Origin: an uncultured bacterium | GTDB lineage: Bacteria > Krumholzibacteriota > Krumholzibacteriia > LZORAL124-64-63 | Length of the DNA: 64,000 bases | NCBI GenBank assembly: GCA_963727525.1 | Contig: CAVSGO010000007.1 | Span: 1,056,001-1,120,000, forward strand | Direction: 5' to 3' | Shown here: piece after piece, positions 10,481 through 50,473 of the stretch | Numbering within the stretch: the first letter of the stretch is position 1 | Layout: the number at the start of each line of letters is the position of its first letter | Made by a program: the position numbers and the translations under genes | The notes under the pieces: model-generated | Told to the model about the DNA's origin: nothing | Database searches by the model: none | Seen by the model: only the letters and a program-made list of their open reading frames with translations

Positions 10481-11302
10481 TCACCGGACGATGCCGCGCT
10501 CCGAACGCCGGATGAAGGCCATCAGGTCCTCGATGTTCTTCGTCAGCTTGCACTCGCTCGCGATGCGCTCGAGGGCCTGGCTCACGTTGAGCGCCGAACG
10601 ATAAAGCAGCCGGTAGGCTTTCTTGAGGTTGTTGAGTTCCTCGTCCGAGAAGTTGTGGCGCTTCAGACCGATGCTGTTGACGCCCGCCACCTCGATCGGA
10701 TTGCCCGCCACCTTGATGAACGGCGGCACGTCCTGCGGCAGCCTGCTACCGCCACCGACGAAGGCGTAGGATCCGACACGCACGAACTGGTGCACCGGTG
10801 TCATGCCGCCGATGGTGGCGAAGCTCTCCACCTCGACGTGGCCGGCCAGGTTCACCGCGTTGGCGATGACGATGTTGCTGTGGATGTGGCAATTATGTGC
10901 GATGTGCACGTAGGCCATGAGCAGGTTGTGATCGCCCACACGAGTCTTCTCGCCCTCGCCAGTCGCCTGGTGGATCGTGCAGTACTCGCGAATGGTGTTG
11001 TAGTCGCCGATCTCGACGAACGACTCCTCGCCCGCGAACTTGAGATCCTGCGGCTCGCTACCGATGGCGGCGCCGTGGAAGACGCGGTTGCCGCGGCCGA
11101 GGATCGTATTGCCCTCGATCAGCACCGACGAACCAATCTCGCAATCCGGGCCGATCTCGACGTTGGGGCCGATGACCGCGTGTGGTCCGACCTGGACGTT
11201 GTGTTCCAGCTTGGCCTGCGGGTGCACGACCGCGGTCGGGTGGATCACCGCCGGGAGAACCGGACGCGGTCCGGACGTACGCTGGAAGTTCAAGGGCTCC
11301 AC
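10481..11302 (-). CDS. lpxA: acyl-ACP--UDP-N-acetylglucosamine O-acyltransferase
   Basis: Hexapeptide repeats, 'PQDLKF', 'MAYVHIAHNC', 'LAGHVEV', 'HQFVRVG'. GTG 11302 with AAGGAGG RBS. Confidence 0.95.
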   Translation of the reverse strand: MEPLNFQRTSGPRPVLPAVIHPTAVVHPQAKLEHNVQVGPHAVIGPNVEIGPDCEIGSSVLIEGNTILGRGNRVFHGAAIGSEPQDLKFAGEESFVEIGDYNTIREYCTIHQATGEGEKTRVGDHNLLMAYVHIAHNCHIHSNIVIANAVNLAGHVEVESFATIGGMTPVHQFVRVGSYAFVGGGSRLPQDVPPFIKVAGNPIEVAGVNSIGLKRHNFSDEELNNLKKAYRLLYRSALNVSQALERIASECKLTKNIEDLMAFIRRSERGIVR

Positions 11303-11327
11303 GCTGATTCCTCCTTGTCCTGGCAGA

Positions 11328-12641
11328 TCAGGAATCCACCAGGTTAGCCATGAGATCGGCCTCGGCAACCTTTTCGTCGCCGACCGTCGCCACGCCCCGC
11401 ATCTTGCAGATCGGCCCGCGCAGCTTCAGCAACTCCAGGGAGAGCGTGAGCTGATCGCCGGGTACGACCGGACGGCGGAAGCGGGCCCCATCGATGCCGC
11501 TGAAGTAGACCAGTTTGCCGTCGGGCTCATCGACGCTGGTGAGCAGCAACACGCCACCCGCCTGCGCCATGGCCTCGATGATCAGCACCCCGGGCATGAT
11601 GGGATGTCCCGGAAAGTGACCCTGGAAGAATGGCTCGTTGATCGTGACGTTCTTGAGCGCGCGGACACTCCGCTGCGGCACCAGTTCCTGTATCCGATCC
11701 ACGAGCAGGAGCGGATACCGGTGCGGCATGACGTTGAGGATGGATGCGATGTCGAAACCCAGCGGCTGGCGCGGCGGATAGATACGCGTGCTCGCGCGTT
11801 CGAGCTTGGCGAGCTTGCGCGTGAACATCGCGTTGGCCGCGTGGCCGGAACGCGTGGCATGCAGGTGTCCCTGGATTGGCATGCCCAGCAGGGCCACGTC
11901 ACCGAGCAAGTCGAGGATCTTGTGGCGTACGAATTCGTCGGGGAACCGCAGTTCCTGGCCGTCGGCGAGCTTGCCGTCGGCGATCACCAGCGCCGTCTCC
12001 AGGGTGCCGCCCTGGGCCAGCCCCATCTCGCGCAGCTTGTGCACGTCCTCGAGGAAGGCGAACGTGCGCGCCGGCGCAATCTCCTTCGCGAATACATCGG
12101 GACGGATCCGGAACGAGGCGGATTGCTTGCCGATGAACGCGTCCCCGTAGTCGACCGCGAAGGAGATGCGGAACTCGTCCGCCGGTTCCGCCACGACCTC
12201 GATGTCGCCCTGCTGGTAACGGACCGTTGCCGCCACGCGATAGTAGGACGCCGGCAAACCCTGCATGACGATGCCCGAGCTCTCGAGCAGGCGTAGGTAG
12301 GGCAACGCGCTGCCGCACCCGGTGACCGGCGGTTCTGGGCCCTCGAGGTCGAGGTAGCAGTTCGTCACGCCCATACCCATCAGGGCGGCGAGCACGTGTT
12401 CGACGGTGACGATCTTGACGTCGCCCTTGACGAGCGTGGTATTGCGCACGGCTGCATCGACGGTATCGACACTCTCGATGAGGGCCGGCACCTCGACGGA
12501 GCGGCCGTTCTGGCGCACGCGAAAAACGAGCCCCGTATTCGGCGGCGCCGGCGCGAAGGTAAGACGCGTGGTTTCGCCCGTGTGCAGGCCCACGCCCTCG
12601 ACGGACGCCGGCCTGCCGACGGTTCGCTGGAGCCAGATCAC
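11328..12641 (-). CDS. lpxC/fabZ: bifunctional UDP-3-O-acyl-GlcNAc deacetylase / 3-hydroxyacyl-ACP dehydratase
   Basis: LpxC motifs 'GVGLHTG', 'TVEHVLAAL', 'ARTF', 'RHKILDLLGD' followed by FabZ motifs 'PHRYPLLLVD', 'FQGHFPGHPIMPGVLIIEAMAQ'. Confidence 0.95.
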   Translation of the reverse strand: MIWLQRTVGRPASVEGVGLHTGETTRLTFAPAPPNTGLVFRVRQNGRSVEVPALIESVDTVDAAVRNTTLVKGDVKIVTVEHVLAALMGMGVTNCYLDLEGPEPPVTGCGSALPYLRLLESSGIVMQGLPASYYRVAATVRYQQGDIEVVAEPADEFRISFAVDYGDAFIGKQSASFRIRPDVFAKEIAPARTFAFLEDVHKLREMGLAQGGTLETALVIADGKLADGQELRFPDEFVRHKILDLLGDVALLGMPIQGHLHATRSGHAANAMFTRKLAKLERASTRIYPPRQPLGFDIASILNVMPHRYPLLLVDRIQELVPQRSVRALKNVTINEPFFQGHFPGHPIMPGVLIIEAMAQAGGVLLLTSVDEPDGKLVYFSGIDGARFRRPVVPGDQLTLSLELLKLRGPICKMRGVATVGDEKVAEADLMANLVDS

Positions 12642-39846: not shown

Positions 39847-40404
39847 TCAGACCCGCCCGAGATACTTGCCCGTCCGCGTGTCGATCTTGAGGACCTCGCC
39901 CTCCTCGATGAAGAGCGGCACCTGTACCACGAGCCCCGTCTCCAGAGTGGCCGGCTTGGAGCCGCCCTGCGCGGTATCGCCGCGCAGGCCGGGATCAGTC
40001 GACGCCACTTCCAGTTCCACGGTCACCGGCGCCTCGACGCTCAGCGGCTTGTCATCGAGCAGGAGGGCGTTGCAGATGACGCTTTCCTTGACGTACAGCG
40101 GCAGGTCGCCGAGGGAATCCTGCGGCAGCATGATCTGTTCGTACGTCTCCATGTTCATGAACGTATAGAACTCACCGTCGTTGTAGAGGTACTGGTAGTC
40201 GCGCCGCTCGAGGCGTACTTCCTCCACCTTCTCACCCGCACGGAACGTCTCTTCTATGACCTTGCCGCTCGTGACGCCCTTGAGGCGCGTCCGCACGAAA
40301 GCCCCGCCCTTGCCCGGCTTGATGTGCTGGAACTCGACGATGGTCCACAGGTCGCCCCTGTGCCGGATGGTGTAGCCGGTGCGAAAGTTGGTTGTATCCG
40401 CCAC
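39847..40404 (-). CDS. efp: elongation factor P
   Basis: 'HIKPGKGGAFVR', 'GLRGDTA', 'KPATLETG', 'VPLFI', 'DTRTGKY'. GTG start at 40404. Confidence 0.95.
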   Translation of the reverse strand: MADTTNFRTGYTIRHRGDLWTIVEFQHIKPGKGGAFVRTRLKGVTSGKVIEETFRAGEKVEEVRLERRDYQYLYNDGEFYTFMNMETYEQIMLPQDSLGDLPLYVKESVICNALLLDDKPLSVEAPVTVELEVASTDPGLRGDTAQGGSKPATLETGLVVQVPLFIEEGEVLKIDTRTGKYLGRV

Positions 40405-40497
40405 GGTCGCCTGCCTTTCTTTTGAGACAGCGATCAAGGTGTTTTGCCTGCCAATGGATAGCATCCGCCTCGCGGCTTGGCAACGAGGATACCGCGA

Positions 40498-41289
40498 TCA
40501 GTGCCCGGATTCCTCCGAACGGGCGCGTTCCAGCCACGCTTTGAAACGTTCGTGGTCGGCCTGGCGGTCCGCGGCCGTCCGCCGCCGGATCCGCTCCCGG
40601 GGCACGGCGCTGGCGGCCGCCGGTGGCGGAACGGCGGGCGCCGGAGCCTCCTCTTCCGCCTTCTCCAGGGCGGCCAGGCGCTCCTGCACGTCGGGCCTGC
40701 CCGGCGTCGCCGCGGCGAGTTGCAGGAGGATGCGCCGTGCCTGGTCGCGATGCCCCTGGCGCAGGAACAGGTCGGCCAGCGTGAGCGTGGCCAGGCCATT
40801 GCCAGCCGCCTCGGCCAACTGAGACTCGGGTGCCGGCGCCGCAAGCGGCGCCGGCGGCACGGTGTCCGCCAGGTGCCGGCGGGCATCGCGCAAGCGATCA
40901 TGGATCACCAGATCGTCGGGCTCCAGTCGCGACAGTCGTTCAAGTCGTGGCACGGCGGCCACCCAGTCGCCGCGTCCCTCGGCATCGGCGGCGAGGAGGC
41001 GCAGAGCCACCAGGTTGTCCGGATCGCGGGCGAGTGCGCGGCCGAGCATGTCCCGCGCGCCGTCGGCATCGGCCAGCTCATCGCGGAGCTGTCCGAGGGC
41101 GACCAGCGCCGACACGTACTGCGGATGTTGCGCGATACCCGCCTCGAGCACGCGGCACGCGTCGTCGATGCGGCCGTTCTGGCGATAGAGATCGGCAAGA
41201 GGTACGAAGCACCGCGACAGCGGATCGCGCGCGAGGCGCGACTCGAAATGCGTCAGCAGGCGTTCGCGATCGACGGCCTCATGCCCCAT
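40498..41289 (-). CDS. tetratricopeptide repeat protein
   Basis: 'DPLSRCFVPLADLYR', 'GIAQHPQYVSA', 'DPDNLVAL', C-terminal 'TLTLADLFLRQGH..QA' and 'F..WL'. ATG 41289 with GAGG RBS. Confidence 0.8.
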   Translation of the reverse strand: MGHEAVDRERLLTHFESRLARDPLSRCFVPLADLYRQNGRIDDACRVLEAGIAQHPQYVSALVALGQLRDELADADGARDMLGRALARDPDNLVALRLLAADAEGRGDWVAAVPRLERLSRLEPDDLVIHDRLRDARRHLADTVPPAPLAAPAPESQLAEAAGNGLATLTLADLFLRQGHRDQARRILLQLAAATPGRPDVQERLAALEKAEEEAPAPAVPPPAAASAVPRERIRRRTAADRQADHERFKAWLERARSEESGH

Positions 41290-41449
41290 GAAGATTCCTC
41301 GCGTTGGTTGGGCGAGCGACGATACGCCATCGAATAGACGAGTCAGCGATTCGACGCGCATGCGATCAGGAGCGCATGCGATCCGACCTGCCTGCGAATC
41401 GCCGTGCTCGTGATTCGGCACCTGCCCCCGAGCGATACGGTGAGGAGGA

Positions 41450-41478
41450 ATTGTAAGCGTAGCGTTGTCGTCGGGCAA
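41450..41478 (-). promoter_or_regulatory. sigma70-type promoter ahead of the TPR-efp-accB genes
   Basis: TTGCCC (41478-41473), 17 nt spacer, TACAAT (41455-41450). Confidence 0.5.
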
Positions 41479-41531
41479 GCGTCTCGTGAACGCATATCTC
41501 GCGAAACTGCGCGACGCCGACGCGCCGTCCT

Positions 41532-42206
41532 CTACCCGAGTCCAAGCCAGTCGCCCAGCAGAAACCGCAGGCGACCGACGAGAAGAGTCACGCGCCCCAT
41601 CACCGCAGACGCGAAGGTCGCGCCGAAGGCCGCCATCAGAAACATCAGGCCGACCCGTGCCACGCGGTTGCGTGTGGCATGGCTGCGTCGCGTGTACGTG
41701 AAGTAGACGAGGCCGCAGATGGTGCCGATCACGACGAGCCACTGGTTGACGGTCGCGGCCCAGTCGACACCCGCCACGCCGCGCACGAGCACGCCCGGCG
41801 TGACCGTGGCCGCGATCTGGTTGAGAAAATCCGAACGCAGATAACGCACGAGGTTGTAGCCGAGCGTGGTGCCGACGGCGAATGCGGTGGGCCAGCGCGC
41901 GATCCAGGCGTAGCGCGGCCAGAGCCGTAGGAGCATGAACAGACCGAGCACGATCGGCACCAGCACCATGGGATCGGCGGGCGGCAACGCCGCGCGCGGA
42001 TGCGTGACGTGCACGGCAGCCGGGACGAGCTTGCACACCCCGTTCGGCCAGAGTGTCGACCAGAAGCCGACCACCATCCAGTAGGCCGCCGAGACGCCCA
42101 CGAAGAGATGCTCGGCGAACTTGTAGAACGAATTGTCGCGCCACAGGAAGCTGAAGACCATCAGCGTGAGTGCGGCGGCGATCCAGGTCTCGAGTTGCGT
42201 GCTCAC
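41532..42206 (-). CDS. hypothetical polytopic membrane protein (GlmL-like/DUF6754 cluster)
   Basis: About 6 hydrophobic segments; 'LTLMVFSFLWRDNSFYKFAEHLFVG', 'LVYFTY', 'MAAFGATFASAVMGR'. GTG overlaps the upstream stop. Confidence 0.8.
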   Translation of the reverse strand: MSTQLETWIAAALTLMVFSFLWRDNSFYKFAEHLFVGVSAAYWMVVGFWSTLWPNGVCKLVPAAVHVTHPRAALPPADPMVLVPIVLGLFMLLRLWPRYAWIARWPTAFAVGTTLGYNLVRYLRSDFLNQIAATVTPGVLVRGVAGVDWAATVNQWLVVIGTICGLVYFTYTRRSHATRNRVARVGLMFLMAAFGATFASAVMGRVTLLVGRLRFLLGDWLGLG

Positions 42207-43069
42207 GTGCCCCTCCCCCGTCGCCGCTGCCACCAGTGTGCCACCAGCCCCACGTTGCCGAGCGCGAGATACAGGAGGATGAGGGCGTGCGCCACCGCCT
42301 GCGGCCCCATGCCCACCGTCGCCGGACGAGGTGGATGTCGCTGCGGATACTCCTCGGCCAGCGCACCCTCATACTCAGCCGCGCCTTTGAGTCCCCCGAC
42401 CAGCCCCACGAGCTGCCGCGGAAAGTATGCGAGGTACTCCGGCATGCCGATGGCCGTGCAGCCGCCGGCCACGGGCACGCCCGCCGCATCGCCGCCGTAA
42501 AGGATCCACTCCTTCAGGCCGGGCGTGCCGGCGGTGAGTCCGATGATGAGCGGAAAATCGGCGAGGCGCGTGATGCCGTGCAGCGCCGGACACGAGTCGA
42601 GCGACGTGCCCGCCAGGTCGGTGCTATAAATCGCCCGCAGGTCCTGGCGCAGCGTGTTGATCACCATCGTGCCGCCAGCCTTGTAGCCGAGCGCCACCCA
42701 GTCGCGCCCCGCGCGCCGGTCGGCGAACTCCCGGGCCAGAACGTCGGTACGCAGTTGCTGGAACATCGCGTTACCCTCAGGGAAGAGCGACACGTACACC
42801 GGTCGCAGGCCGCGCCAGAGCAGGTGGCGAGTGATCGCCTGCGCCATGGGCTCGATCTCCGGCGAGGAACCGGGGCTGTAGTCGAGAGAGACCAGCACCG
42901 GCGACCCGGGCGGCAGCGCCTCGATCGCGGCGAAGACGGGCGCCGTGAAGCACGACGGATGATCAGGGAACACCGGACGCACCAGCAGCGTCACGATTAG
43001 CGCCACCAGCAGCAGCAGGTAGAGCCAGCGGCGGTCGATGCGGCCGAGGGCGTCGAGCGTGCGGATCAC
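42203..43069 (-). CDS. hypothetical membrane-anchored alpha/beta protein (GlmL-like/DUF6754 cluster)
   Basis: N-terminal TM 'IDRRWLYLLLLVALIV', soluble domain 'VLVSLDYSPGSSPEIEPM' and 'GGLKGAAEYE', C-terminal TM. Confidence 0.8.
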   Translation of the reverse strand: MIRTLDALGRIDRRWLYLLLLVALIVTLLVRPVFPDHPSCFTAPVFAAIEALPPGSPVLVSLDYSPGSSPEIEPMAQAITRHLLWRGLRPVYVSLFPEGNAMFQQLRTDVLAREFADRRAGRDWVALGYKAGGTMVINTLRQDLRAIYSTDLAGTSLDSCPALHGITRLADFPLIIGLTAGTPGLKEWILYGGDAAGVPVAGGCTAIGMPEYLAYFPRQLVGLVGGLKGAAEYEGALAEEYPQRHPPRPATVGMGPQAVAHALILLYLALGNVGLVAHWWQRRRGRGT

Positions 43070-43773
43070 CGGCCACCTCCCCCGTCGCGCCCGGGACTCA
43101 GCAGGATCCTCAACGTCATCGCCGCCACGCCCAGCGCGATGCCGATCAGGATCGCACGTTGGCCCGCCACGTTGGGTACACTCATGATCCAGATGCTCAG
43201 CGTGTCGATCCGCAGGAATCCCAGCCACGTGGGCAGCGGATCGCTCAGCCAGGTTCCCAGGGGTGTTCGCCCGAGCAGCACGATCGCAGCCGACACGAGC
43301 AACACCGCGGCTTCCGGCGAGCGCAGGCGAAAGGCACGGTAGGCGGCCGAGGCCACGAAGAATGCGAGCAACGAGTAGAGCGTGGCCATGAGGGGCCTGT
43401 ACACGGCTGCGAAGATCAGCGAGAAGAGCGTGCCGGGATCGGTGACCTCGCCCTGCAAACCGGGTGCACCGCCGATCTTGGCAAGCCCGACGACGAGCAC
43501 GACCGTGAACGACACCAGCGTCACCACAGAGTAAGCCCAGTCCTCGCGCTGCCGCAGGATGCGTGTCACGTGATGCTTCAGAAGATTTGCACCGCCCAGG
43601 ATGAAGGCGAATACCGCGAGGATGTCGAACCACAGGGAGAAGTGGCGGTCGATGTAGTCGAAGGCCCGCGGGACCCACGCCGCCCGACCGGCGCCAGGCA
43701 GCGCGACGAACGACGTCAGGATCAGCAGGATCCCGACGACGGACGTGATCAACCGTGGCAACTGGCGCTTCAC
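43066..43773 (-). CDS. hypothetical polytopic membrane protein (GlmL-like/DUF6754 cluster)
   Basis: About 6 TM segments; 'ATLYSLLAFFVASAAYRAFR', 'WIMSVPNVAGQRAILIG'. Confidence 0.8.
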   Translation of the reverse strand: MKRQLPRLITSVVGILLILTSFVALPGAGRAAWVPRAFDYIDRHFSLWFDILAVFAFILGGANLLKHHVTRILRQREDWAYSVVTLVSFTVVLVVGLAKIGGAPGLQGEVTDPGTLFSLIFAAVYRPLMATLYSLLAFFVASAAYRAFRLRSPEAAVLLVSAAIVLLGRTPLGTWLSDPLPTWLGFLRIDTLSIWIMSVPNVAGQRAILIGIALGVAAMTLRILLSPGRDGGGGR

Positions 43774-43783
43774 CGACGTCTCC

Positions 43784-44593
43784 CTATCCGGCTTGCAGTA
43801 GCCGCAGGATCGCGCGCTGCGCGGCGAGCAGCGGCGGCCAATGCGTGGTGGCGGCCAGCGTTATCACGAACGGCACCGTGACGAGCAGACCGATCACGAC
43901 GACCTTGACGAGGTCCTGGCCGCGCAGGCTTCCCAGCTTGTCGGGATCGCCGGTGACGTAGGCCTCGGCGGCGAAGAATTCCTCGCCGATGAGCACGTGG
44001 TCGCACGCGGCCACGAGGAACGGCAACTGGTGCGCCGCCGCCGTGCCCGCCACCATCACGCTGCCGGCCTGCGCGCCGCCCTCGGCGATGAGGAGCGACT
44101 CGGCGAAGAAGCCGCCCAGCAGGAAGCAGGCGGCCGGGCGCCGACGCGCGATGAGGCCGTCGACCCGCGCGGCGAATCCGAACTGGTCGTCGGTGACGTA
44201 GCTCACGATCTCGGGGTTGTAGCTGTCGGGCCGGCCCGCCGCCGTGTAGCTCTCTCGCAGCACCTCGCGCGCAGCCGCCAGCACGAGACTGCGGTCGGTG
44301 GGCATCACGAGCTCGCAGCCATGCCGCGCCGTCATGCGGCCAACCGCGCCGAGGATGCCCAGGCTCGCCACGGTCTGCACGTCATCGAGGTCCTGCACGC
44401 CGGCGATGTAGAAGACGGGGCGTCCCATCTCGGTGGCGCGGCCAACGGCGTCCTCCATCGCCGCGACGCCGGCGATCCGTCGCACCGCCGGCAGATCGCC
44501 GCGCCGCGCGCGCCGGATACTGAGGAAGACGGCGGCGACGATCCCGACGATCACCACGGCCAGCGGCCAGCTCCCGGGCTGTATCCCGCTCAT
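43784..44593 (-). CDS. DUF6754-like membrane-anchored protein
   Basis: 'VRRIAGV..MEDAVGRATEMGRP', 'AGRPDSY', 'DQF', 'FAESLLIAE', 'QLPFLVAACDHVLIGEEFFAA.AY', 'LGSLRGQD'. Family recalled from motifs, not searched. Confidence 0.75.
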   Translation of the reverse strand: MSGIQPGSWPLAVVIVGIVAAVFLSIRRARRGDLPAVRRIAGVAAMEDAVGRATEMGRPVFYIAGVQDLDDVQTVASLGILGAVGRMTARHGCELVMPTDRSLVLAAAREVLRESYTAAGRPDSYNPEIVSYVTDDQFGFAARVDGLIARRRPAACFLLGGFFAESLLIAEGGAQAGSVMVAGTAAAHQLPFLVAACDHVLIGEEFFAAEAYVTGDPDKLGSLRGQDLVKVVVIGLLVTVPFVITLAATTHWPPLLAAQRAILRLLQAG

Positions 44594-45735
44594 CTCGGCC
44601 CCCCCTCGGCCGGTGTGTCGCCCATCAGCTCGAGATTCGCACGTGGCACGAGCACCGCGCTGCCGCCGTCGAGATCGACCTCGGCGACCAGACAGCGGGC
44701 CTCGTTGGGCAGAGCCGCGAGCGCCGCGGGCAGCCGGGCCACGCGCCCACACTGGCCGAACCACGGCTCACGCACGACCATGACCCGGCAACCCGGTTCC
44801 AGGGCGCCAGGACGCACCGCTTCCGCGGCCGCGGCATCCACGGGCGTCGCCAGCGGTATGATGATTTCCGGACGCACGGCGCCGGCGCGCACGCGGGTCG
44901 TGCCCGCCAGGCAGGCTTGGCGCCCCTCGCTCGCCAGCAGCAACGCGAAGGCGCGGCGATCCACGGGCATGCGCCCGAACCCCCCCAGCACCACGAGGGT
45001 GAGGGACGCTGCGATCTCGGTGGTGTCGGCCACGCAGAGTTCGCGACCGAGCCACATGTCGAGATCGGTCGCCGCGACGCCGCCCGTGATCACACCCACG
45101 GCGCCAGACGCCGCGGCGCGACGCAGCGCGTCACAGGTCACCAGTCCGCCGGCCACGAGGATGCGTCCCGTGAGATCGCCGTCGATCATCTCGCCGGTGA
45201 GGGTCGCGTCAGGTCGGCGGACTGCGAGCGTCAACTCGCCTACCGCCTCGCCCCCCACGCCGAACACGCCGGGAAGCTGGGCACCCCATCCCATGACCGC
45301 CACGCCCCGCCGCGCCTTGACCTCGGTGACAATGCCCGGCAGGAACGCGCACACCTCCCGCGGCAGCGCGCTTCGGGCCAGCAGCACCTGACCCGTGTGC
45401 CGGGATACGGCCACGACGGTCCCGTCGTTCGGGGCAGGGCAGGTCGTTGCGAGCCAGCCCCACAGTCCCCGGGTGCGCGCAAGGGCGTCGCCGGCCAGCA
45501 CCGCCTCCCCGACCGCCTTCACCATGGCGCCCGGCACCTCGGCAGGGCGCAGGTCGAGCTGCTGAGCCACGTTCACAGTGAACATGGCCCCCTGCCCCGC
45601 CGCGCGCGCCACAACCGTGTCGGGGCGCACGCGATCGCCGACGCCTAGCAGCACCTCGCCGTCGACGGGCATCAGTCGCCAGCGACGCAGCACGGTGCGC
45701 GGACGGGGCGCCAGGCTGAAATGGGGCGTCGTCAC
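44590..45735 (-). CDS. hypothetical protein with barrel-sandwich-hybrid-like repeats and C-terminal KOW/SH3-like domain
   Basis: 'GEVLLGVGDRVRPDTVVA', 'VKAVGEAVLAGDALA', 'APNDGTVVAV', 'GFGRMP', C-terminal 'LEPGCRVMVVREPWFG..G.V...VPRANLE'. Confidence 0.75.
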   Translation of the reverse strand: MTTPHFSLAPRPRTVLRRWRLMPVDGEVLLGVGDRVRPDTVVARAAGQGAMFTVNVAQQLDLRPAEVPGAMVKAVGEAVLAGDALARTRGLWGWLATTCPAPNDGTVVAVSRHTGQVLLARSALPREVCAFLPGIVTEVKARRGVAVMGWGAQLPGVFGVGGEAVGELTLAVRRPDATLTGEMIDGDLTGRILVAGGLVTCDALRRAAASGAVGVITGGVAATDLDMWLGRELCVADTTEIAASLTLVVLGGFGRMPVDRRAFALLLASEGRQACLAGTTRVRAGAVRPEIIIPLATPVDAAAAEAVRPGALEPGCRVMVVREPWFGQCGRVARLPAALAALPNEARCLVAEVDLDGGSAVLVPRANLELMGDTPAEGGPR

Positions 45736-47867
45736 GGCCACACCTCCGGGATCGCATCCAGGGCGCGCCACCATCCGCGCACCACCTTGCGCCGCGACAG
45801 TTCCGCGCTGGGCCACACGATGGCGCGCCCACGGCCGTCGAGCACCACGCCCGCCGGGCCTCCGCACACCCAGGCCGCCACAGGCTGCCCGGGGCCGGCG
45901 CCGAAGTCCACACGTTCCTGCGGCTCGATGCTCAGATGCGCCTCCTGCCCGGCAGCCAGCGGCAGCCGCCGCAACTCGCCGGCGACGAAGAGCACCGACG
46001 ACGCGGCGTCATCGTCGCCTCGCGGATCGCGCAGGCGCACCTGCGCCAGCGGTTGCCCGGGCGCCACCGGCGCGGCGACCGGCGCCACGCAGGCGCCGAG
46101 CGTCACGATCGCATCGCGTTGCAGCACTGCGGCCGCGGCGTCCGCGTCGACACCGCGCAGCACGCCGAGATGGGGCAGCACGAAGACCGAGTCCACCGCG
46201 AGCTCGGTCACGCCCACCGGCCGGCAGGCGTCGACGAGCATGAGCGCCGCCTGCGTGCGCCGCGGTGCGTTGGCCAGGGGGCCGCCCGAGCCGAGCAACA
46301 GACGCACGCGCGGCCAGTCGATCGCCGGCGGCGGCACGTCTGAAACCAGGTCGAACGCGAGACGTCCGCCGGCCGTCACGGCGTCGCGTCCGCCGCGCAG
46401 AGGCTGCATCGCAGCCTCGTGATCGACGAGTGCCAGGCGCAGCGCCTCGCGAGCCGCCGCCTGTTCGAAACAGAGGTCGTCCCAGGTCACCGGGAGGGTG
46501 GTCGGACGCACCATCTTGTTGCGTGCGCGATCGCGCAGACTGTCGAGGTCGCCCGGCCCCGGCAGCCAGCGTGCGATCGTCTCCCACCCGGCGCGCGCGC
46601 CCACGCTGCCGAGGCTATAGCTGAGGCCGAGGTTCGCGCTCACGCTGCGGCGCACCACGCCGTCGCGCACGCTGAAGACGTCCGTGGTCGCCCCGCCGAG
46701 ATCCACGGCCACGACATCGCCGTCGGCCTGCTGCGCGAGCAGATCGAGCGCCACGCCGAAGGCCGCGGGCGTAGGCAACACCGGCGCGTGGCACAGCGTC
46801 TGCAGACCCGGGTAGCCGGGCGCGCGCGCCATCACGTGACGCAGGAAGACATCGTGGATGCAGGCGCGCACCGGCTGCACTCGCTCCTGCTCGAGGGTGG
46901 GGCGCACATTGGGGGCCACCACGACCTCGGCGACGGCGGCGAGCGCCGTGGTCACTCCTTCCGCTGCCTGCGGGTTGCCGGCGAAGACGACGGGCAGGCG
47001 TCCCTCCCCGTAGCGCGGGCGGATGCCGGCGGCGGCCACCAGCTCGGCAAGCCCCACGACCGGCGCCACGGCTCCTTCGTCGGTGCCACCGCTGATCAGC
47101 ACGATGTCGGGCCGACAGAGGCGCAGGCGTTCGAGCCGGGTCACGGTGTCATCGGGGTCGTTGTGCGCGAACACGGCCGTTATGATGGCGCCCGCCCCCA
47201 GCGCGGCACGCGCCGCGCTCTCCGCGGTCATCGCGCGCACCAGGCCGACCACCACCATCTGCAGCCCGCCACCTGCGCTGCTCGTCGCCAGGCAGGCGCG
47301 GACGCCATGGTGCGCGTCGGTCGCGGGCAGGATGCGGTTCCCGTCGTCGGCCAGGAACGGATGGCCCGTCAGCTCCTGCAGCAGGGTGAGGGCGCTGCGC
47401 ACGCCGCAGAGCACGTCTTCTACCGGCGCCTCCACCGTGGTGGGCGACTCGGCGCGACCGGCCAGACGGTAGCAGCCACCATGGTGCACGAGGAGCACGG
47501 CCTTCGTGGTGGTGGACCCGCAATCGGTGATGACGTAAGCACCGTCAGGTGGTCCCGCGAGCCGCCGCGTTTGCGCCTCGGGAGCGGTGGCCGCATCCAG
47601 GTGAGCCAGCAGCCGATCGATCTGCGGCCGCTGCTCCAGCAGGTCGGCCAGACGTTGCCAGTCTCCCCCTGCCTCGGTGAGCGATACGAAGGGCGCCAGC
47701 GCCTGCATGAGCTGGCTTCCCACGAAACTCAGCGGACGCAACCATTCGAGTCCCAGCAACGCGGGACCGGCGAGGCCGCGGCGCGCGATGGCCGCAGCCA
47801 CGCCCGCCAGGAATCGATCGTCGCTCGCGTCGAGGCCGGCGCGCCGGCGTCTCGGATCGCTGCGCAT
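45732..47867 (-). CDS. GlmL/MutL (glutamate mutase L)-like ASKHA/actin-fold ATPase with an extra ~100-aa N-terminal domain
   Basis: 'ITDCGSTTTK', 'PTTVE', 'ATSSAGGGLQM', 'ISGGTDEG', 'FAGN', 'NVRP', 'LPTPAA', 'VDLGGATTDVFS', 'GSGG'. Confidence 0.82.
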   Translation of the reverse strand: MRSDPRRRRAGLDASDDRFLAGVAAAIARRGLAGPALLGLEWLRPLSFVGSQLMQALAPFVSLTEAGGDWQRLADLLEQRPQIDRLLAHLDAATAPEAQTRRLAGPPDGAYVITDCGSTTTKAVLLVHHGGCYRLAGRAESPTTVEAPVEDVLCGVRSALTLLQELTGHPFLADDGNRILPATDAHHGVRACLATSSAGGGLQMVVVGLVRAMTAESAARAALGAGAIITAVFAHNDPDDTVTRLERLRLCRPDIVLISGGTDEGAVAPVVGLAELVAAAGIRPRYGEGRLPVVFAGNPQAAEGVTTALAAVAEVVVAPNVRPTLEQERVQPVRACIHDVFLRHVMARAPGYPGLQTLCHAPVLPTPAAFGVALDLLAQQADGDVVAVDLGGATTDVFSVRDGVVRRSVSANLGLSYSLGSVGARAGWETIARWLPGPGDLDSLRDRARNKMVRPTTLPVTWDDLCFEQAAAREALRLALVDHEAAMQPLRGGRDAVTAGGRLAFDLVSDVPPPAIDWPRVRLLLGSGGPLANAPRRTQAALMLVDACRPVGVTELAVDSVFVLPHLGVLRGVDADAAAAVLQRDAIVTLGACVAPVAAPVAPGQPLAQVRLRDPRGDDDAASSVLFVAGELRRLPLAAGQEAHLSIEPQERVDFGAGPGQPVAAWVCGGPAGVVLDGRGRAIVWPSAELSRRKVVRGWWRALDAIPEVWP

Positions 47868-47874
47868 CGTCGGG

Positions 47875-49533
47875 TCAATCCCGGGCCTTGAGGAACTCTC
47901 CGACGGCAATCAGATCGCGGCCCTCGCCGGCCAGCGCCTCGGGCGCACAGCGGGCGGTGATCTTCGCCGCGAGCTGCGCACCGGCGGCGACGGCCTCGGC
48001 CCCGCCGTCCTCGACGAAGCCCGGCACGAGCGAGACCGCCCCCAGCACCACCGCCTGCACGGCCTGCCGGGCGAAGACGCGACTCGCCGCGGCGTGCATG
48101 TCGGCCAGGGCGCTCCCCTCTGCGGCGAGCGACGCAGCCTTGCGTGCGCAGGCACCCGCCACCTCGCAGCGCGCCATGAGATCGGCGAGCCGGAAGAGCG
48201 CGAGCTGGTGGCGCGTGATCTTCGCCGCATGCCCGGCCAGGATCACATCGTTCAATCCGCGCAACGCGGCCGCAGCGAGACCGGCGCCCACGTGGCCCGC
48301 CTCGGCGTGGGTGGCGTCGAGAGCCTCGGCAAGGCGGTTGTAAACCTCACCCTTGCCCCGCACTGTGTCCTTCCAGCGATACAGGCCGATGATGCTCTGC
48401 TGGATCTCGCTGGTACCCTCGTAGATCGACGTGATGCGCACGTCGCGGCGATACTTCTCCACCATGTACTCGCGGCTGTATCCATAGCCGCCGAGAGCCT
48501 GCAGCGCGCAGTCGGCCGCACGGTTGCCGGCCTCGGTGCACCACAGCTTGGCCACCGAGCCCTCGACCTGGAGGTCCGTCTCGCCGCCGTCGATGCGCAG
48601 CGCGGTGTCCTCCACGTAGTCGCGGCCCGCGAGCATGTCGATCCACGGCTGCACGATGAGCTTGAGCAGGTAGCCTTCCTTGTCCACGAGCGGCGCGCCG
48701 AACTGGATGCGCTGCTTGCCGTAGGCGAGCGCGCGGTCGAGGGCGCCTTGCCCTGCGCCGAGCCCGAAAGCGCCTACCATGAGGCGCGTGTAGCCGAAGA
48801 CTGCGTTGGCCTGCTTCAGCCCCTGCCCTTCCACGCCACCCACGAGCTGGGACGCTGGCACCTCGACGTCCTCGAGCAGCACGGCCGCGGTATTAGAGGC
48901 GCGGATGCCATGTTTATCCTCTTGCTTGCCCAGCACGAGGCCCGCGGCGCCGCGCTCGACGATGAAGAATGTGGGACCGGCAGGCGCCTTGGCCAGGATC
49001 GTGTAGAGATCGGCGACCCCACCGTTGGTGATGAATTGCTTGGCGCCGGCGAGGCGGTAGCCGGTGACGGCGCCGCTCGCATCGGTGATGGGCGTGGCCG
49101 TGGTCTTGAGCGAGGCCACATTGCTACCGGCCTCGGGCTCGGTGACACCGTAAGCCACCACCATGCCCTCGCCGGCGATGCGGCTCAGCCAGTGCTGCTT
49201 CTGTTCCGGCGTACCCCCCACCACGATGGGATCGGTGCCCAGGCAAATGGCGAGGAACGCCGTGGCCACGCCAAGGTCATGTGCGGCCATGACCTCGGAC
49301 ACGCGGCAGATGTCGCGCGCGCCACCGCCGAGGCCGCCCACCTCCTCGGGCAGGAAGATCAGGTGCAGGCCGACATCCGGGGAGAGCAGCTTGCGGATGA
49401 CGTCGGTGGGGAAGATGTCCTTCTCGTCGAGTTCGAGCAACTTGCTATCGGGCAACTCGCGCGCGACGACCTGCAGCAGCGTCTGCACCACCATGTCGGT
49501 CATCTCGGGAGCCAGGCCGGCCGGTCGATTCAT
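47875..49533 (-). CDS. acyl-CoA dehydrogenase family protein (long form)
   Basis: 'GTPEQKQHWL', 'YGVTEPEAGSNV', 'GAKQFITNG', 'KHGIRASNT', 'QALGGYGY', 'RDVRITSIYEGTSEIQ'. ATG 49533 with AGGAGG RBS. Confidence 0.92.
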   Translation of the reverse strand: MNRPAGLAPEMTDMVVQTLLQVVARELPDSKLLELDEKDIFPTDVIRKLLSPDVGLHLIFLPEEVGGLGGGARDICRVSEVMAAHDLGVATAFLAICLGTDPIVVGGTPEQKQHWLSRIAGEGMVVAYGVTEPEAGSNVASLKTTATPITDASGAVTGYRLAGAKQFITNGGVADLYTILAKAPAGPTFFIVERGAAGLVLGKQEDKHGIRASNTAAVLLEDVEVPASQLVGGVEGQGLKQANAVFGYTRLMVGAFGLGAGQGALDRALAYGKQRIQFGAPLVDKEGYLLKLIVQPWIDMLAGRDYVEDTALRIDGGETDLQVEGSVAKLWCTEAGNRAADCALQALGGYGYSREYMVEKYRRDVRITSIYEGTSEIQQSIIGLYRWKDTVRGKGEVYNRLAEALDATHAEAGHVGAGLAAAALRGLNDVILAGHAAKITRHQLALFRLADLMARCEVAGACARKAASLAAEGSALADMHAAASRVFARQAVQAVVLGAVSLVPGFVEDGGAEAVAAGAQLAAKITARCAPEALAGEGRDLIAVGEFLKARD

Positions 49534-49558
49534 GACGTTCCTCCTGAACGAATCGCCC

Positions 49559-50473
49559 TCAGGGCAGTGTGATGGTCCCTTTGCCCACCAGCGCGCAGCG
49601 ACCGCCCACCCGGATGTCGGTGGCGTGCCCGCTGCGCACCGTCGCCTCGACGAACAGGCGGCTGGGACGGCCCATCTCGAGACCCTGTTCACTGACGAAG
49701 GAGACCCGGTCGGCCCAGCGGACCAGCCGGTGCTTGACGAGATAGGCCGCGAGCGCGCCGTGAGCGGCCCCGCTGGCCGGGTCTTCGGGAATGCCGTACA
49801 TCGGCGCGAACATACGGCAGTGCACCGACGCGTCGGGATCCACGGTCTCACAGGTGAACACGAAGAGATCGCCGAAGCCGAGGTCGCGCGCGATCTTGTC
49901 GGCCTCCCGCCGGCGCAGCGTGGCCGCGCGTACGGCCGCCAGGCTGCCCACGGGGACGACATGGATCGGCAGACCGGTGGCGATCACCTCGCACGGCAGG
50001 CCCGTGATCGCGATCTCGCTCTCTTCCAGCCCCAGTGCCTGCGCCACCTTGCCGCGGTGGAAGTACTGGCCCAGAAAATTCGGCGCGTCCAGCAGCAGGC
50101 TGTAGATGGCCGCGTCGCCGTGGCCAGCCGTGATGACGGTGGCTCGGCTCGACTCGAGAGCCCAGGTGAACGGCACCGGCTTCTTTCCGGCCGCGCGCCG
50201 GCCCAGGACATCGAGACCGAAGGTGGCGCCGATTGTCGAGTGCCCCGCGAACGGCAGCTCCACCTGGGGAGTGAAGACTCGCAGCACGCCCTCGTGACCT
50301 CCGGCTCGCGGGCGCTCCACCACGAATGCTGTCTCCCCGCACCCCATCTCGCGCGCGAGCTTGAGCATGATGTCCGGTGGCACACTGCCGGCATCGGGGA
50401 ACAGCGTCAGGCGACTGCCCCCGAGGGCCTCGTCGCAGAACACGTCGATCAGCAGGAATTCCAGCTGGAGCAA
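49559..50473 (-). CDS. PhzF/DapF-like isomerase family protein
   Basis: 'IDVF', 'ETAF', 'RVFTPQVELPFAGHSTIG', 'RMFAP..GIPEDPASGAA', 'EQGLEMGRPS', 'VGG'. Start uncertain (TTG 50473 or GTG 50485). Confidence 0.88.
   Translation of the reverse strand: MLQLEFLLIDVFCDEALGGSRLTLFPDAGSVPPDIMLKLAREMGCGETAFVVERPRAGGHEGVLRVFTPQVELPFAGHSTIGATFGLDVLGRRAAGKKPVPFTWALESSRATVITAGHGDAAIYSLLLDAPNFLGQYFHRGKVAQALGLEESEIAITGLPCEVIATGLPIHVVPVGSLAAVRAATLRRREADKIARDLGFGDLFVFTCETVDPDASVHCRMFAPMYGIPEDPASGAAHGALAAYLVKHRLVRWADRVSFVSEQGLEMGRPSRLFVEATVRSGHATDIRVGGRCALVGKGTITLP

Follow-up and report, generated by a model that had tools for sequence, protein, structure and literature searches.

What does an ATPase of the MutL/GlmL family do next to a set of membrane proteins, and what kind of machine do these genes encode together? 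The question is raised by a stretch of 64,000 nucleotides from an uncultured bacterium of the Krumholzibacteriota (assembly GCA_963727525.1, contig CAVSGO010000007.1, positions 1,056,001 to 1,120,000), here called the window, in which six open reading frames (ORFs), P0001 to P0006, span 41532-47867, all on the minus strand. We tentatively propose, with a probability of roughly 45%, that they form a two-layer inner-membrane complex. The first layer would be an autonomous core made of the DUF6754 protein P0003, the six-helix membrane protein P0004, P0005 with its periplasmic domain on two transmembrane (TM) helices and the polytopic P0006. The second layer would be a cytoplasmic accessory, consisting of the MutL/GlmL-family ASKHA ATPase P0001, which is here fused to a domain called c0, and its partner P0002 with barrel-sandwich, swivelling and KOW domains. 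ATPase and partner would dock as one unit on the Rossmann-like domain of DUF6754, and ATP would be used to remodel this domain, to load or unload its ligand, or to regulate it. Through DUF6754 the pair would then regulate the membrane complex, whose site of action would be the cell envelope. The model for this mechanism is taken from the reactivase-type ASKHA chaperones (GlmL, DdrA and EutA), which act on Rossmann-like cofactor-binding subunits.

The genes are tightly packed. P0001 (45732..47867, 711 amino acids) has additional N- and C-terminal parts around its ATPase region, and its stop codon overlaps the start codon of the soluble, three-domain protein P0002 (44590..45735, 381 amino acids) by 4 bp (GTGA, 45732-45735). 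P0003 (43784..44593, 269 amino acids) in turn starts on the stop codon of P0002 (ATGA, 44590-44593). Only between P0003 and P0004 (43066..43773, 235 amino acids, six predicted TM segments) is there a gap, where a TAG stop is followed by the 10-nt spacer GGAGACGTCG, which contains GGAG, and a GTG start. P0005 (42203..43069, 288 amino acids, doubly anchored and with a predicted periplasmic domain) and P0006 (41532..42206, 224 amino acids, polytopic with 4-6 TM helices) again begin with 4-bp start/stop overlaps of the sequence GTGA, at 43066-43069 and 42203-42206. A GGAG- or GGAGG-like stretch lies 5-12 nt 5' of each of the five downstream starts. An earlier reading of this DNA from its letters alone (the sequence-only reading) had described six same-strand genes with four 4-bp overlaps and one 10-bp gap, and this arrangement can be read directly at these positions. 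All six families are single-copy in the genome of the window, which is 96.67% complete.

The block is conserved far beyond chance. A search with the DUF6754 profile against a collection with one genome per species gave at least 597 contig stretches, with relatives in more than 10 phyla, and the best 80 loci were examined. The record titles of these 80 name Krumholzibacteriota, Planctomycetota (including Gimesia and Phycisphaerae), Zixiibacteriota, Gemmatimonadota, Acidobacteriota, Ignavibacteria, Fermentibacteria, Cloacimonadota, Eisenbacteria and others. When the six window proteins were compared with all ORFs of the best 80 loci using phmmer, P0003 was matched in 80 loci, P0004 in 77, P0005 in 74, P0006 in 72, P0001 in 40 and P0002 in 44. 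The order DUF6754, P0004, P0005, P0006 is retained in 72 of the 80. At least one core gene is absent from the other eight, seven of which stop at a contig end, while the eighth (L037) contains unrelated ORFs and its contig ends 1.4 kb downstream. The genes thus also occur as a block in other genomes. The sequence-only reading had mentioned similar clusters in uncultured anaerobic bacteria and archaea; this is borne out only in part, as all 80 loci carry bacterial record titles, some of them from aerobic, Gimesia-labelled lineages, and no archaea-specific search was made. Nor is the system rare, as besides the 597 or more contig stretches a library of 1.84 billion proteins contains 5166 representatives of the P0005 family at E <= 1e-3 (50%-identity level).

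The ATPase and P0002 behave as a unit. Among 41 relatives, including the genome of the window and with MutL counted above its cut-off, DUF6754 is found in 18, the P0002 family in 14 and MutL in 14. MutL and P0002 occur in the identical 14 relatives, always adjacent, and all of these are among the 18 that carry DUF6754. A second sample consists of 61 genomes from the order of a Gimesia-labelled carrier, where DUF6754 and P0002 are both present in the same 51 genomes, which hold the system as a single copy, and both missing from the same 10. There are also two natural fusions of MutL and P0002, an ORF in locus L090 and the 911-residue protein P0396. Finally, in a comparison of pairwise distances across 24 loci with all six genes adjacent, which is confounded by phylogeny, P0001 and P0002 co-vary as one block (r 0.91), and P0004, P0005 and P0006 as another (r 0.94-0.95).

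Some copies of the pair have irregular reading frames. In L080 (7434-9950), the C-terminal region of MutL and P0002 share one stop-free frame, and about 140 residues between them look out-of-frame; this apparent fusion may be a frameshift or an assembly error. One in-frame TGA was seen in the P0002 match of genome G003 (C499:4197-5333) and one in the MutL match of G012 (C50:5736-7136), which could be sequencing errors or decaying copies.

The four membrane proteins can exist on their own. Four of the 18 DUF6754-bearing relatives (G007, G010, G013 and G021, 92-97% complete) have an intact four-gene core and neither MutL nor P0002 in the assembly. In five further genomes the sampled DUF6754 locus has no adjacent pair, and each of these has exactly one P0002 elsewhere, two of them in a second complete six-gene cluster and three in a lone MutL-P0002 pair. 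Several relatives have two to five copies of DUF6754 and a single ATPase pair, and in L046 (5809-16876) and L052 (5927-17193) three tandem complete cores are divergent from one MutL-P0002 pair. Taken over all samples, the pair is kept in 70 of the 74 core-bearing genomes checked (14/18, 51/51 and 5/5). From the lone cores and from the tandem or extra copies with a single pair, it follows that the four membrane proteins are the core and that the pair is a usually present, near-obligatory accessory rather than an obligatory motor. The earlier proposal that the ATPase powers or gates a membrane complex is weakened by the same two observations. As a side observation, the DUF6754 copies in the four pair-less genomes (L099-L102) score 227-305 bits against the Pfam model, compared with 306-340 bits for the pair-adjacent copies of other relatives; this could reflect an altered constraint after loss of the pair, in a small sample of related genomes.

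Is the ATPase a GlmL? The Pfam family MutL (PF13941) matches P0001 with E 3.1e-107 and 359.6 bits (gathering threshold 27), from residue 111 to 585 and over positions 1-449 of the 450 in the model. The only other Pfam match is a weak one to Hydantoinase_A (E 6e-4), and a PDB sequence search with P0001 alone gave no significant relative. This ASKHA core (46113..47537, minus strand) contains both phosphate motifs that had been noticed from the sequence, DCGSTTTK at residues 115-122 and DLGGATTD at 389-396. They are mostly invariant among 36 relatives of P0001, with T120, L390 and T395 nearly invariant or variable, and from this conservation P0001 is probably a competent ATPase. However, P0001 stays below all three curated NCBIfam cut-offs, with 189.6 bits for GlmL (NF040745, cut-off 475), 176 bits for Or-4 (NF040744, cut-off 600) and 127.4 bits for glmL_fam (TIGR01319, cut-off 204.05), and it is therefore not GlmL. 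MutL/GlmL is described in PMC4682846 as a chaperone in the reactivation of glutamate mutase.

No E subunit of glutamate mutase (PF06368) turned up in the 41 relatives, the genome of the window included, or in five distant carriers (0/46 in total). The genome of the window has six matches to the B12-binding family PF02310, none of them within the window, so that the absence of a mutase or B12-binding gene noted from the letters holds. The MutL-like ATPase appears to be functionally paired with P0002, to track the membrane genes and to be unconnected to glutamate mutase.

On both sides of the ASKHA core P0001 carries regions of its own. The N-terminal c0 domain (47565..47852, minus strand, residues ~6-101) is elsewhere mostly a separate small gene of ~100-145 codons directly upstream of MutL, and it is fused to the ATPase in the window. 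A hidden Markov model (HMM) built from the separate upstream c0 ORFs matches P0001 with E 2.9e-23 (1.4e-22 against the whole genome), and it finds c0 in 33 of 41 MutL-bearing loci versus 0 of 40 loci without MutL. Within the domain no segment is hydrophobic enough to pass the threshold. Another small gene, c4, which encodes two hydrophobic helices and a soluble part, occurs in 17 of the 41 MutL-bearing loci and was not found in the genome of the window. The C-terminal extension (45735..46112, minus strand, residues 586-711) adds 126 amino acids past the end of the Pfam MutL model and is conserved in the relatives, with G656, G673, D677 and R679 invariant in the alignment. A Pfam search of the c0 and c4 genes and of the P0001 extensions gave no match.

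The membrane proteins have few recognizable relatives. By hydropathy above a threshold, P0004 has six hydrophobic segments with basic cytoplasmic loops, and its conserved cytoplasmic motifs are SAAYRAFR and AGQRA. P0006 has four or five segments above the threshold and a conserved FSFLYxDNPFYKFAEH motif. Of the two proteins to which the sequence-only reading had assigned about six TM helices, P0004 keeps this number, and P0006 is placed at four to six. P0005 has hydrophobic segments at 16-34 and ~252-280, near either end, and its C-terminal TM helix is followed by a basic tail. Its domain of ~215 amino acids is predicted to be periplasmic, with an N-in TM helix and both termini inside the cell. 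The prediction of two doubly anchored proteins is borne out by the hydropathy of P0005 and by an AlphaFold2 (AF2) model of P0003, described below.

P0004, P0005 and P0006 themselves have no Pfam and no meaningful NCBIfam match, and no consistent Pfam family emerged among 42 members of the P0004 family, 45 of P0005 and 45 of P0006. A PDB sequence-profile search with the P0005 family gave no significant match, and in the ESM Atlas the nearest clusters to P0005 are all unnamed hypothetical proteins. Natural fusions of P0005 with P0006, ~580-600 amino acids long, occur in 3 of 150 listed P0005 representatives; the proteins noted for such fusions or for the insertions described below are P0136, P0138 and P0149, and P0204 and P0225. 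An origin by internal duplication was considered and rejected: when the profiles of the six families were compared with one another (15 pairs), the probabilities are at most 4.1% (hhalign 4.1% for P0003 with P0005, 0.1% for P0004 with P0006). The six families are mutually unrelated, and thus neither the anchored pair (P0003 and P0005) nor the polytopic pair (P0004 and P0006) consists of duplicates.

The large differences between carriers lie in the predicted periplasmic parts. In P0005 insertions concentrate near residue 112 and in some members are CARDB or HEAT inserts; apart from these two nothing was found by Pfam in the long forms. Planctomycete P0004 proteins are 605-618 amino acids long (L069 4167-6017, L072 10797-12668 and L093 2925-4748), and the extra length is an insertion of ~380 amino acids between TM3 and TM4, helical-looking, in a predicted periplasmic loop and with no Pfam match. 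The conserved side of the core is its cytoplasmic face, and the extracytoplasmic side is variable.

Could the ATPase nevertheless act as a motor and drive a new kind of primary transporter or ion pump with ATP, the two polytopic proteins being the pathway? The design resembles a transporter, with two distinct polytopic subunits, a subunit with a periplasmic domain and a cytoplasmic nucleotide-type domain, and the conserved arginine motifs on the cytoplasmic side of P0004 could be coupling elements. Four of the five gene junctions are 4-bp start/stop overlaps, and pair and core co-occur strictly in one planctomycete order (51/51). Against this, a complete core without the pair exists in 4 of 18 relatives, and one pair can face up to three tandem cores per locus and up to five DUF6754 copies per genome. 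No transporter family was matched consistently by the members of the three membrane families, and no transporter is known to be driven by an ASKHA ATPase. We consider a motor unlikely.

The partner of the ATPase, P0002, has three domains. The AF2 model of P0002 (pLDDT, the predicted local distance difference test, 89.1) and its fold matches agree with the soluble, multidomain barrel-sandwich/KOW protein that had been deduced from the letters. The barrel-sandwich hybrid domain (residues ~46-124) is matched in VIA-align by RnfC (8ahx_C, Z 7.4) and NqrA (4u9o, Z 7.2). VIA-align matches also define the swivelling beta/beta/alpha domain (residues ~130-300), with Enzyme I first (2wqd, Z 9.4, root-mean-square deviation 2.6, 107 aligned), followed by RraA (Z 8.8) and rifampin phosphotransferase (Z 8.6). 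The KOW/SH3-like domain (residues ~311-375) has many NusG/Spt5 KOW-type matches with Z 7-8.6.

At the sequence level P0002 itself matches only RnfC_N in Pfam (E 0.075) and nothing in NCBIfam. Across 38 members of its family, Pfam gives Biotin_lipoyl in 29, RnfC_N in 20, KOW in 10 and NQRA_N in 8, and Complex1_51K, SLBB and Fer4 in neither P0002 nor its 37 relatives. A PDB profile search with the family gave nothing significant (best NusG KOW, E 0.0094), and the single Foldseek match in the PDB at E <= 0.001 is NusG, with a low template-modelling score (TM-score). In the alignment of 38 sequences neither a histidine nor a lysine is invariant, and no lysine is nearly invariant either; a phospho-histidine or biotinyl/lipoyl role of P0002 is therefore unlikely. 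The hairpin of the hybrid domain, where a biotinyl/lipoyl lysine would be expected, reads ARTRG in the window protein, with no modifiable lysine conserved. A search for longer relatives, in which a blank would be weak evidence, returned one, the P0396 fusion.

P0003 is the best defined member of the core. As had been suggested, it belongs to DUF6754 (PF20539, E 4.6e-94, 314.8 bits, gathering threshold 27), and NCBIfam adds nothing meaningful. Its AF2 model (pLDDT 93.3) shows a Rossmann-like domain of six strands between two TM helices, of which the C-terminal one is long, and from hydropathy and charge distribution the first helix is N-out and the Rossmann-like domain cytoplasmic. An alignment of 60 sequences from many phyla has 47 invariant columns. 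Many of these hold polar residues located after beta-strands, among them R52, E55, D68, S166, E171, T184, Q189, C197, D198, E204, E205, Q226, D227 and K230, and R101, S102 and E165 are nearly invariant.

The fold itself is generic. Foldseek gave no match to DUF6754 in the PDB at E <= 0.001, and LOG/Moco-carrier-like chains reach a probability of 1.0, yet a target-normalised TM-score of only ~0.5. VIA-align returns a flat list of Rossmann-like folds, with phosphoglycerate kinase (PGK) at Z 10.7, sirtuins at ~10, transhydrogenase domain III (dIII) at 9.7 and 9.5, KTN/RCK at 8.8-9.8 and GT-B halves at 9-10. No significant relative was found in a PDB sequence-profile search with the family. Longer forms of DUF6754 have a PQQ-like beta-propeller or FN3 domains added at the N-terminus. 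In L037 a DUF6754 protein of 510 amino acids (10798-12185) is followed by three unrelated small ORFs in place of P0004-P0006, the first of which is, by eye, presumably a nucleotidyltransferase-type toxin-antitoxin component.

We favour DUF6754 as the docking site of the pair for four reasons. The core has no other large domain in the cytoplasm; the invariant polar residues of DUF6754 follow its beta-strands, the place at which ligands are bound in Rossmann-like folds; its start codon overlaps the stop codon of P0002; and among the core proteins its distances correlate best with those of P0002. In this last comparison, weak and confounded by phylogeny as it is, DUF6754 lies between the two blocks, with r 0.87 to P0002 versus 0.78-0.81 for the other membrane proteins. 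Its partial correlation to the pair is the only positive one in the core (0.21-0.22 versus -0.25 to -0.43). The distance correlations are only a hint that DUF6754 may be the contact of the pair. The analogy with the reactivases draws on the chaperone role described for MutL/GlmL and on the middle domain of P0002, whose swivelling fold is also part of DdrA.

The same domain can be read in another way. The core might work by itself, as a secondary transporter, as an ion-coupled enzyme or as a sensor in which DUF6754 binds a nucleotide or cofactor and the pair is an assembly or quality-control factor. This would agree with the autonomy of the core in 4 of 18 relatives, with transhydrogenase dIII and KTN/RCK among the fold matches of DUF6754, and with the variable extracytoplasmic domains, which suggest that the partners outside differ. 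The Z values for dIII and KTN/RCK are, however, tied with those of many unrelated Rossmann-like folds such as PGK, the sirtuins and the GT-B halves, no known nucleotide-binding motif was recognised in DUF6754, and 70 of 74 core-bearing genomes retain the pair. We regard such an independent core as unlikely too, slightly more so than a motor.

Where would the complex act? A recurrent neighbour of the pair points to the envelope. Of 50 loci with the pair, 13 have MotA/ExbB and ExbD genes at most ~3.5 kb away from it, versus 0 of 40 pair-less loci. Among the Zixibacteria/Ignavibacteria-type loci they are found in L046, L052, L079, L095, L097 and L098; in five of these six the pair is directly upstream of the MotA/ExbB-ExbD genes and co-directional with them, and in L097 they are divergently upstream of MutL. 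In L079 and L095 a complete run of tolQ-tolR-tolA-like-tolB follows downstream of the pair. Gimesia-labelled loci have exbB-exbD-exbD-tatD upstream, and Fermentibacteria-type loci have a gene for a TonB-dependent receptor and then exbB-exbD-exbD-tonB downstream. The carrier genomes have only 3-8 MotA/ExbB genes each, and by a rough estimate adjacency by chance would be seen in ~1% per lineage. From this TolQR/ExbBD neighbourhood in three lineages, and from the variable extracytoplasmic additions to DUF6754 and P0005 (PQQ-like propeller, FN3, CARDB), we infer an envelope role, and the class of phenotype to expect would be envelope integrity, outer-membrane constriction or uptake. A MotA/ExbB-family gene of the present genome (G000:C7:1055595-1055909, one of eight) lies ~90 bases before the start of the window and ~42 kb from the cluster.

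A bolder form of our proposal is a new class of bacterial envelope machine, in which ATPase and adaptor would cyclically remodel a ligand-binding Rossmann domain clamped between two TM helices and so drive or gate the core, which would cooperate with proton-motive systems of the Tol/Ton type in the maintenance or constriction of the outer membrane. We see this as a long shot; if true, the system would be a candidate for an as yet missing factor of the envelope or of division, for instance in the Planctomycetes.

Slightly further down the scale, and improbable, is an actin-like, membrane-attached scaffold of the FtsA, MreB or PilM type, in which the ATPase would organise a trans-envelope complex with Tol/Ton, for example in envelope constriction. 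P0001 does have an ASKHA fold, small membrane-associated partner genes precede it (c0 in 33 and c4 in 17 of 41 loci), and the pair is directly upstream of tolQ-tolR-tolA-like-tolB in L079 and L095. In one planctomycete order, moreover, 51 of 61 genomes have the system, and such lineages are not known to have FtsZ. The kin of the MutL family are, however, reactivases and hydantoinase-type ATPases and not polymerising actins, the only second Pfam match of P0001 being Hydantoinase_A (E 6e-4), and the link to Tol is confined to part of the carriers.

That the six proteins are a very divergent Rnf/Nqr-like redox-driven ion pump is hardly credible: the N-terminal domain of P0002 does resemble the RnfC/NqrA barrel-sandwich hybrid (Z 7.4 and 7.2, RnfC_N in 20 of 38 and NQRA_N in 8 of 38 members) and the subunit set, two small polytopic proteins and a periplasmic-domain protein, is loosely similar, but no Rnf-Nqr family is among the listed matches of 42 P0004 and 45 P0006 members (E <= 1; for P0004 25 of 37 families), P0004 and P0006 are mutually unrelated (hhalign 0.1%), unlike NqrD and NqrE, and no Fe-S, flavin or NADH-binding family was found in any of the six.

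We thus return to the docking of the pair on DUF6754 as the preferred reading, and several points weigh against it. Every core-bearing genome of the planctomycete order also has the pair (51/51), which fits an obligatory motor equally well, and the four pair-less relatives are draft genomes of 92-97% completeness. The 13 loci with Tol/Exb neighbours represent only about three independent events, in three lineages, and the cluster of the window has no such neighbour. In L095 ~500 nt without a convincing ORF separate P0002 from tolQ, so that the pair and the tol genes may not share a transcript. The idea of a client domain rests on analogy, since the fold matches of DUF6754 are generic and a similarity to B12 domains is lacking; DUF6754 as a B12-binding domain was tried and rejected, with hhalign probabilities below 1% against five PF02310 domains of the same genome. 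Neither DdrA nor EutA is among the listed structural matches of P0002.

Around the operon, the window has 62-74% GC per 2-kb bin. P0001 has an alternative TTG start at 47909. Upstream of it lies an ORF on the minus strand (47875-49962, 695 amino acids counted from the first ATG), which by eye-reading of the sequence, and without a Pfam test, we take to resemble an acyl-CoA dehydrogenase. Its stop codon ends 7 nt 5' of the P0001 ATG, and because of this short distance it may be co-transcribed with the operon; a homologue is at the same upstream position in the loci of six close relatives (L014-L018 and L039). About 130 nt 3' of P0006 follows a gene for a TPR-like protein (40498-41400, minus strand), which has homologues 3' of the cluster in six related loci, and after it come what we read by eye as EF-P-like, AccB-like and PilT-like ORFs. 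The only promoter-like (sigma-70-like) site of the scanned region, 41478-41450, is downstream of the operon and precedes the TPR-like gene. No terminator-like site was found in 40400-50200, so none lies inside or 3' of the block.

How does the system compare with known ones? For four of the six families Pfam has no model, and for the families searched there is no solved relative by sequence. The products match no characterised complex in Pfam, NCBIfam and PDB sequence and structure searches, as anticipated from the letters; among the six there is no Pfam match to ABC_tran. A full-text search, without supplementary files and with subscription journals largely outside its reach, returned no paper on DUF6754, on PF13941/PF20539 or on the cluster. 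Judged by this absence of matches, the system would be a new kind of machine, and no known machine has the same composition. Since some carriers come from cultured planctomycete lineages, knock-outs and pull-downs should be feasible.

Several systems share single features with it. With Rnf/Nqr it shares a peripheral subunit with an N-terminal barrel-sandwich hybrid and several small membrane subunits, one with a periplasmic domain; here, however, the membrane subunits are unrelated in sequence to those of Rnf/Nqr, cofactor motifs are absent, and P0004 and P0006 are mutually unrelated. Tol-Pal and TonB-ExbBD are neighbours of the pair in three lineages and are, as the proposed complex would be, inner-membrane complexes with periplasmic parts, but no homology to the six proteins was found and they are not adjacent in the window. 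PntB domain III and KTN/RCK resemble DUF6754 as Rossmann-like domains tethered at the cytoplasmic face of the membrane (Z 8.8-9.8), although their matches are tied with other folds, a common motif is lacking, and the domain of DUF6754 sits between two TM helices.

Closest in family is GlmL/MutL (PF13941), with which P0001 shares the end-to-end Pfam match, the ASKHA fold and the intact phosphate motifs. P0001 differs by its sub-cut-off scores, its c0 domain and 126-residue C-terminal extension, and by tracking P0002 and the membrane genes with no mutase E gene. Closest in the suggested mechanism are the B12-enzyme reactivases DdrAB and EutA, in which an ASKHA ATPase and a swivelling domain act together on a Rossmann-like partner. 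No B12 enzyme is nearby here, DUF6754 is unlike B12-binding domains, and DdrA and EutA are missing from the listed fold matches. The swivelling domain is in P0002 and the Rossmann-like domain in DUF6754, that is on separate polypeptides, and the putative client is anchored in the membrane. A large branch of MutL/GlmL would thereby be set apart from B12 enzymology, and it gains a testable partner in P0002 and a candidate client in DUF6754.

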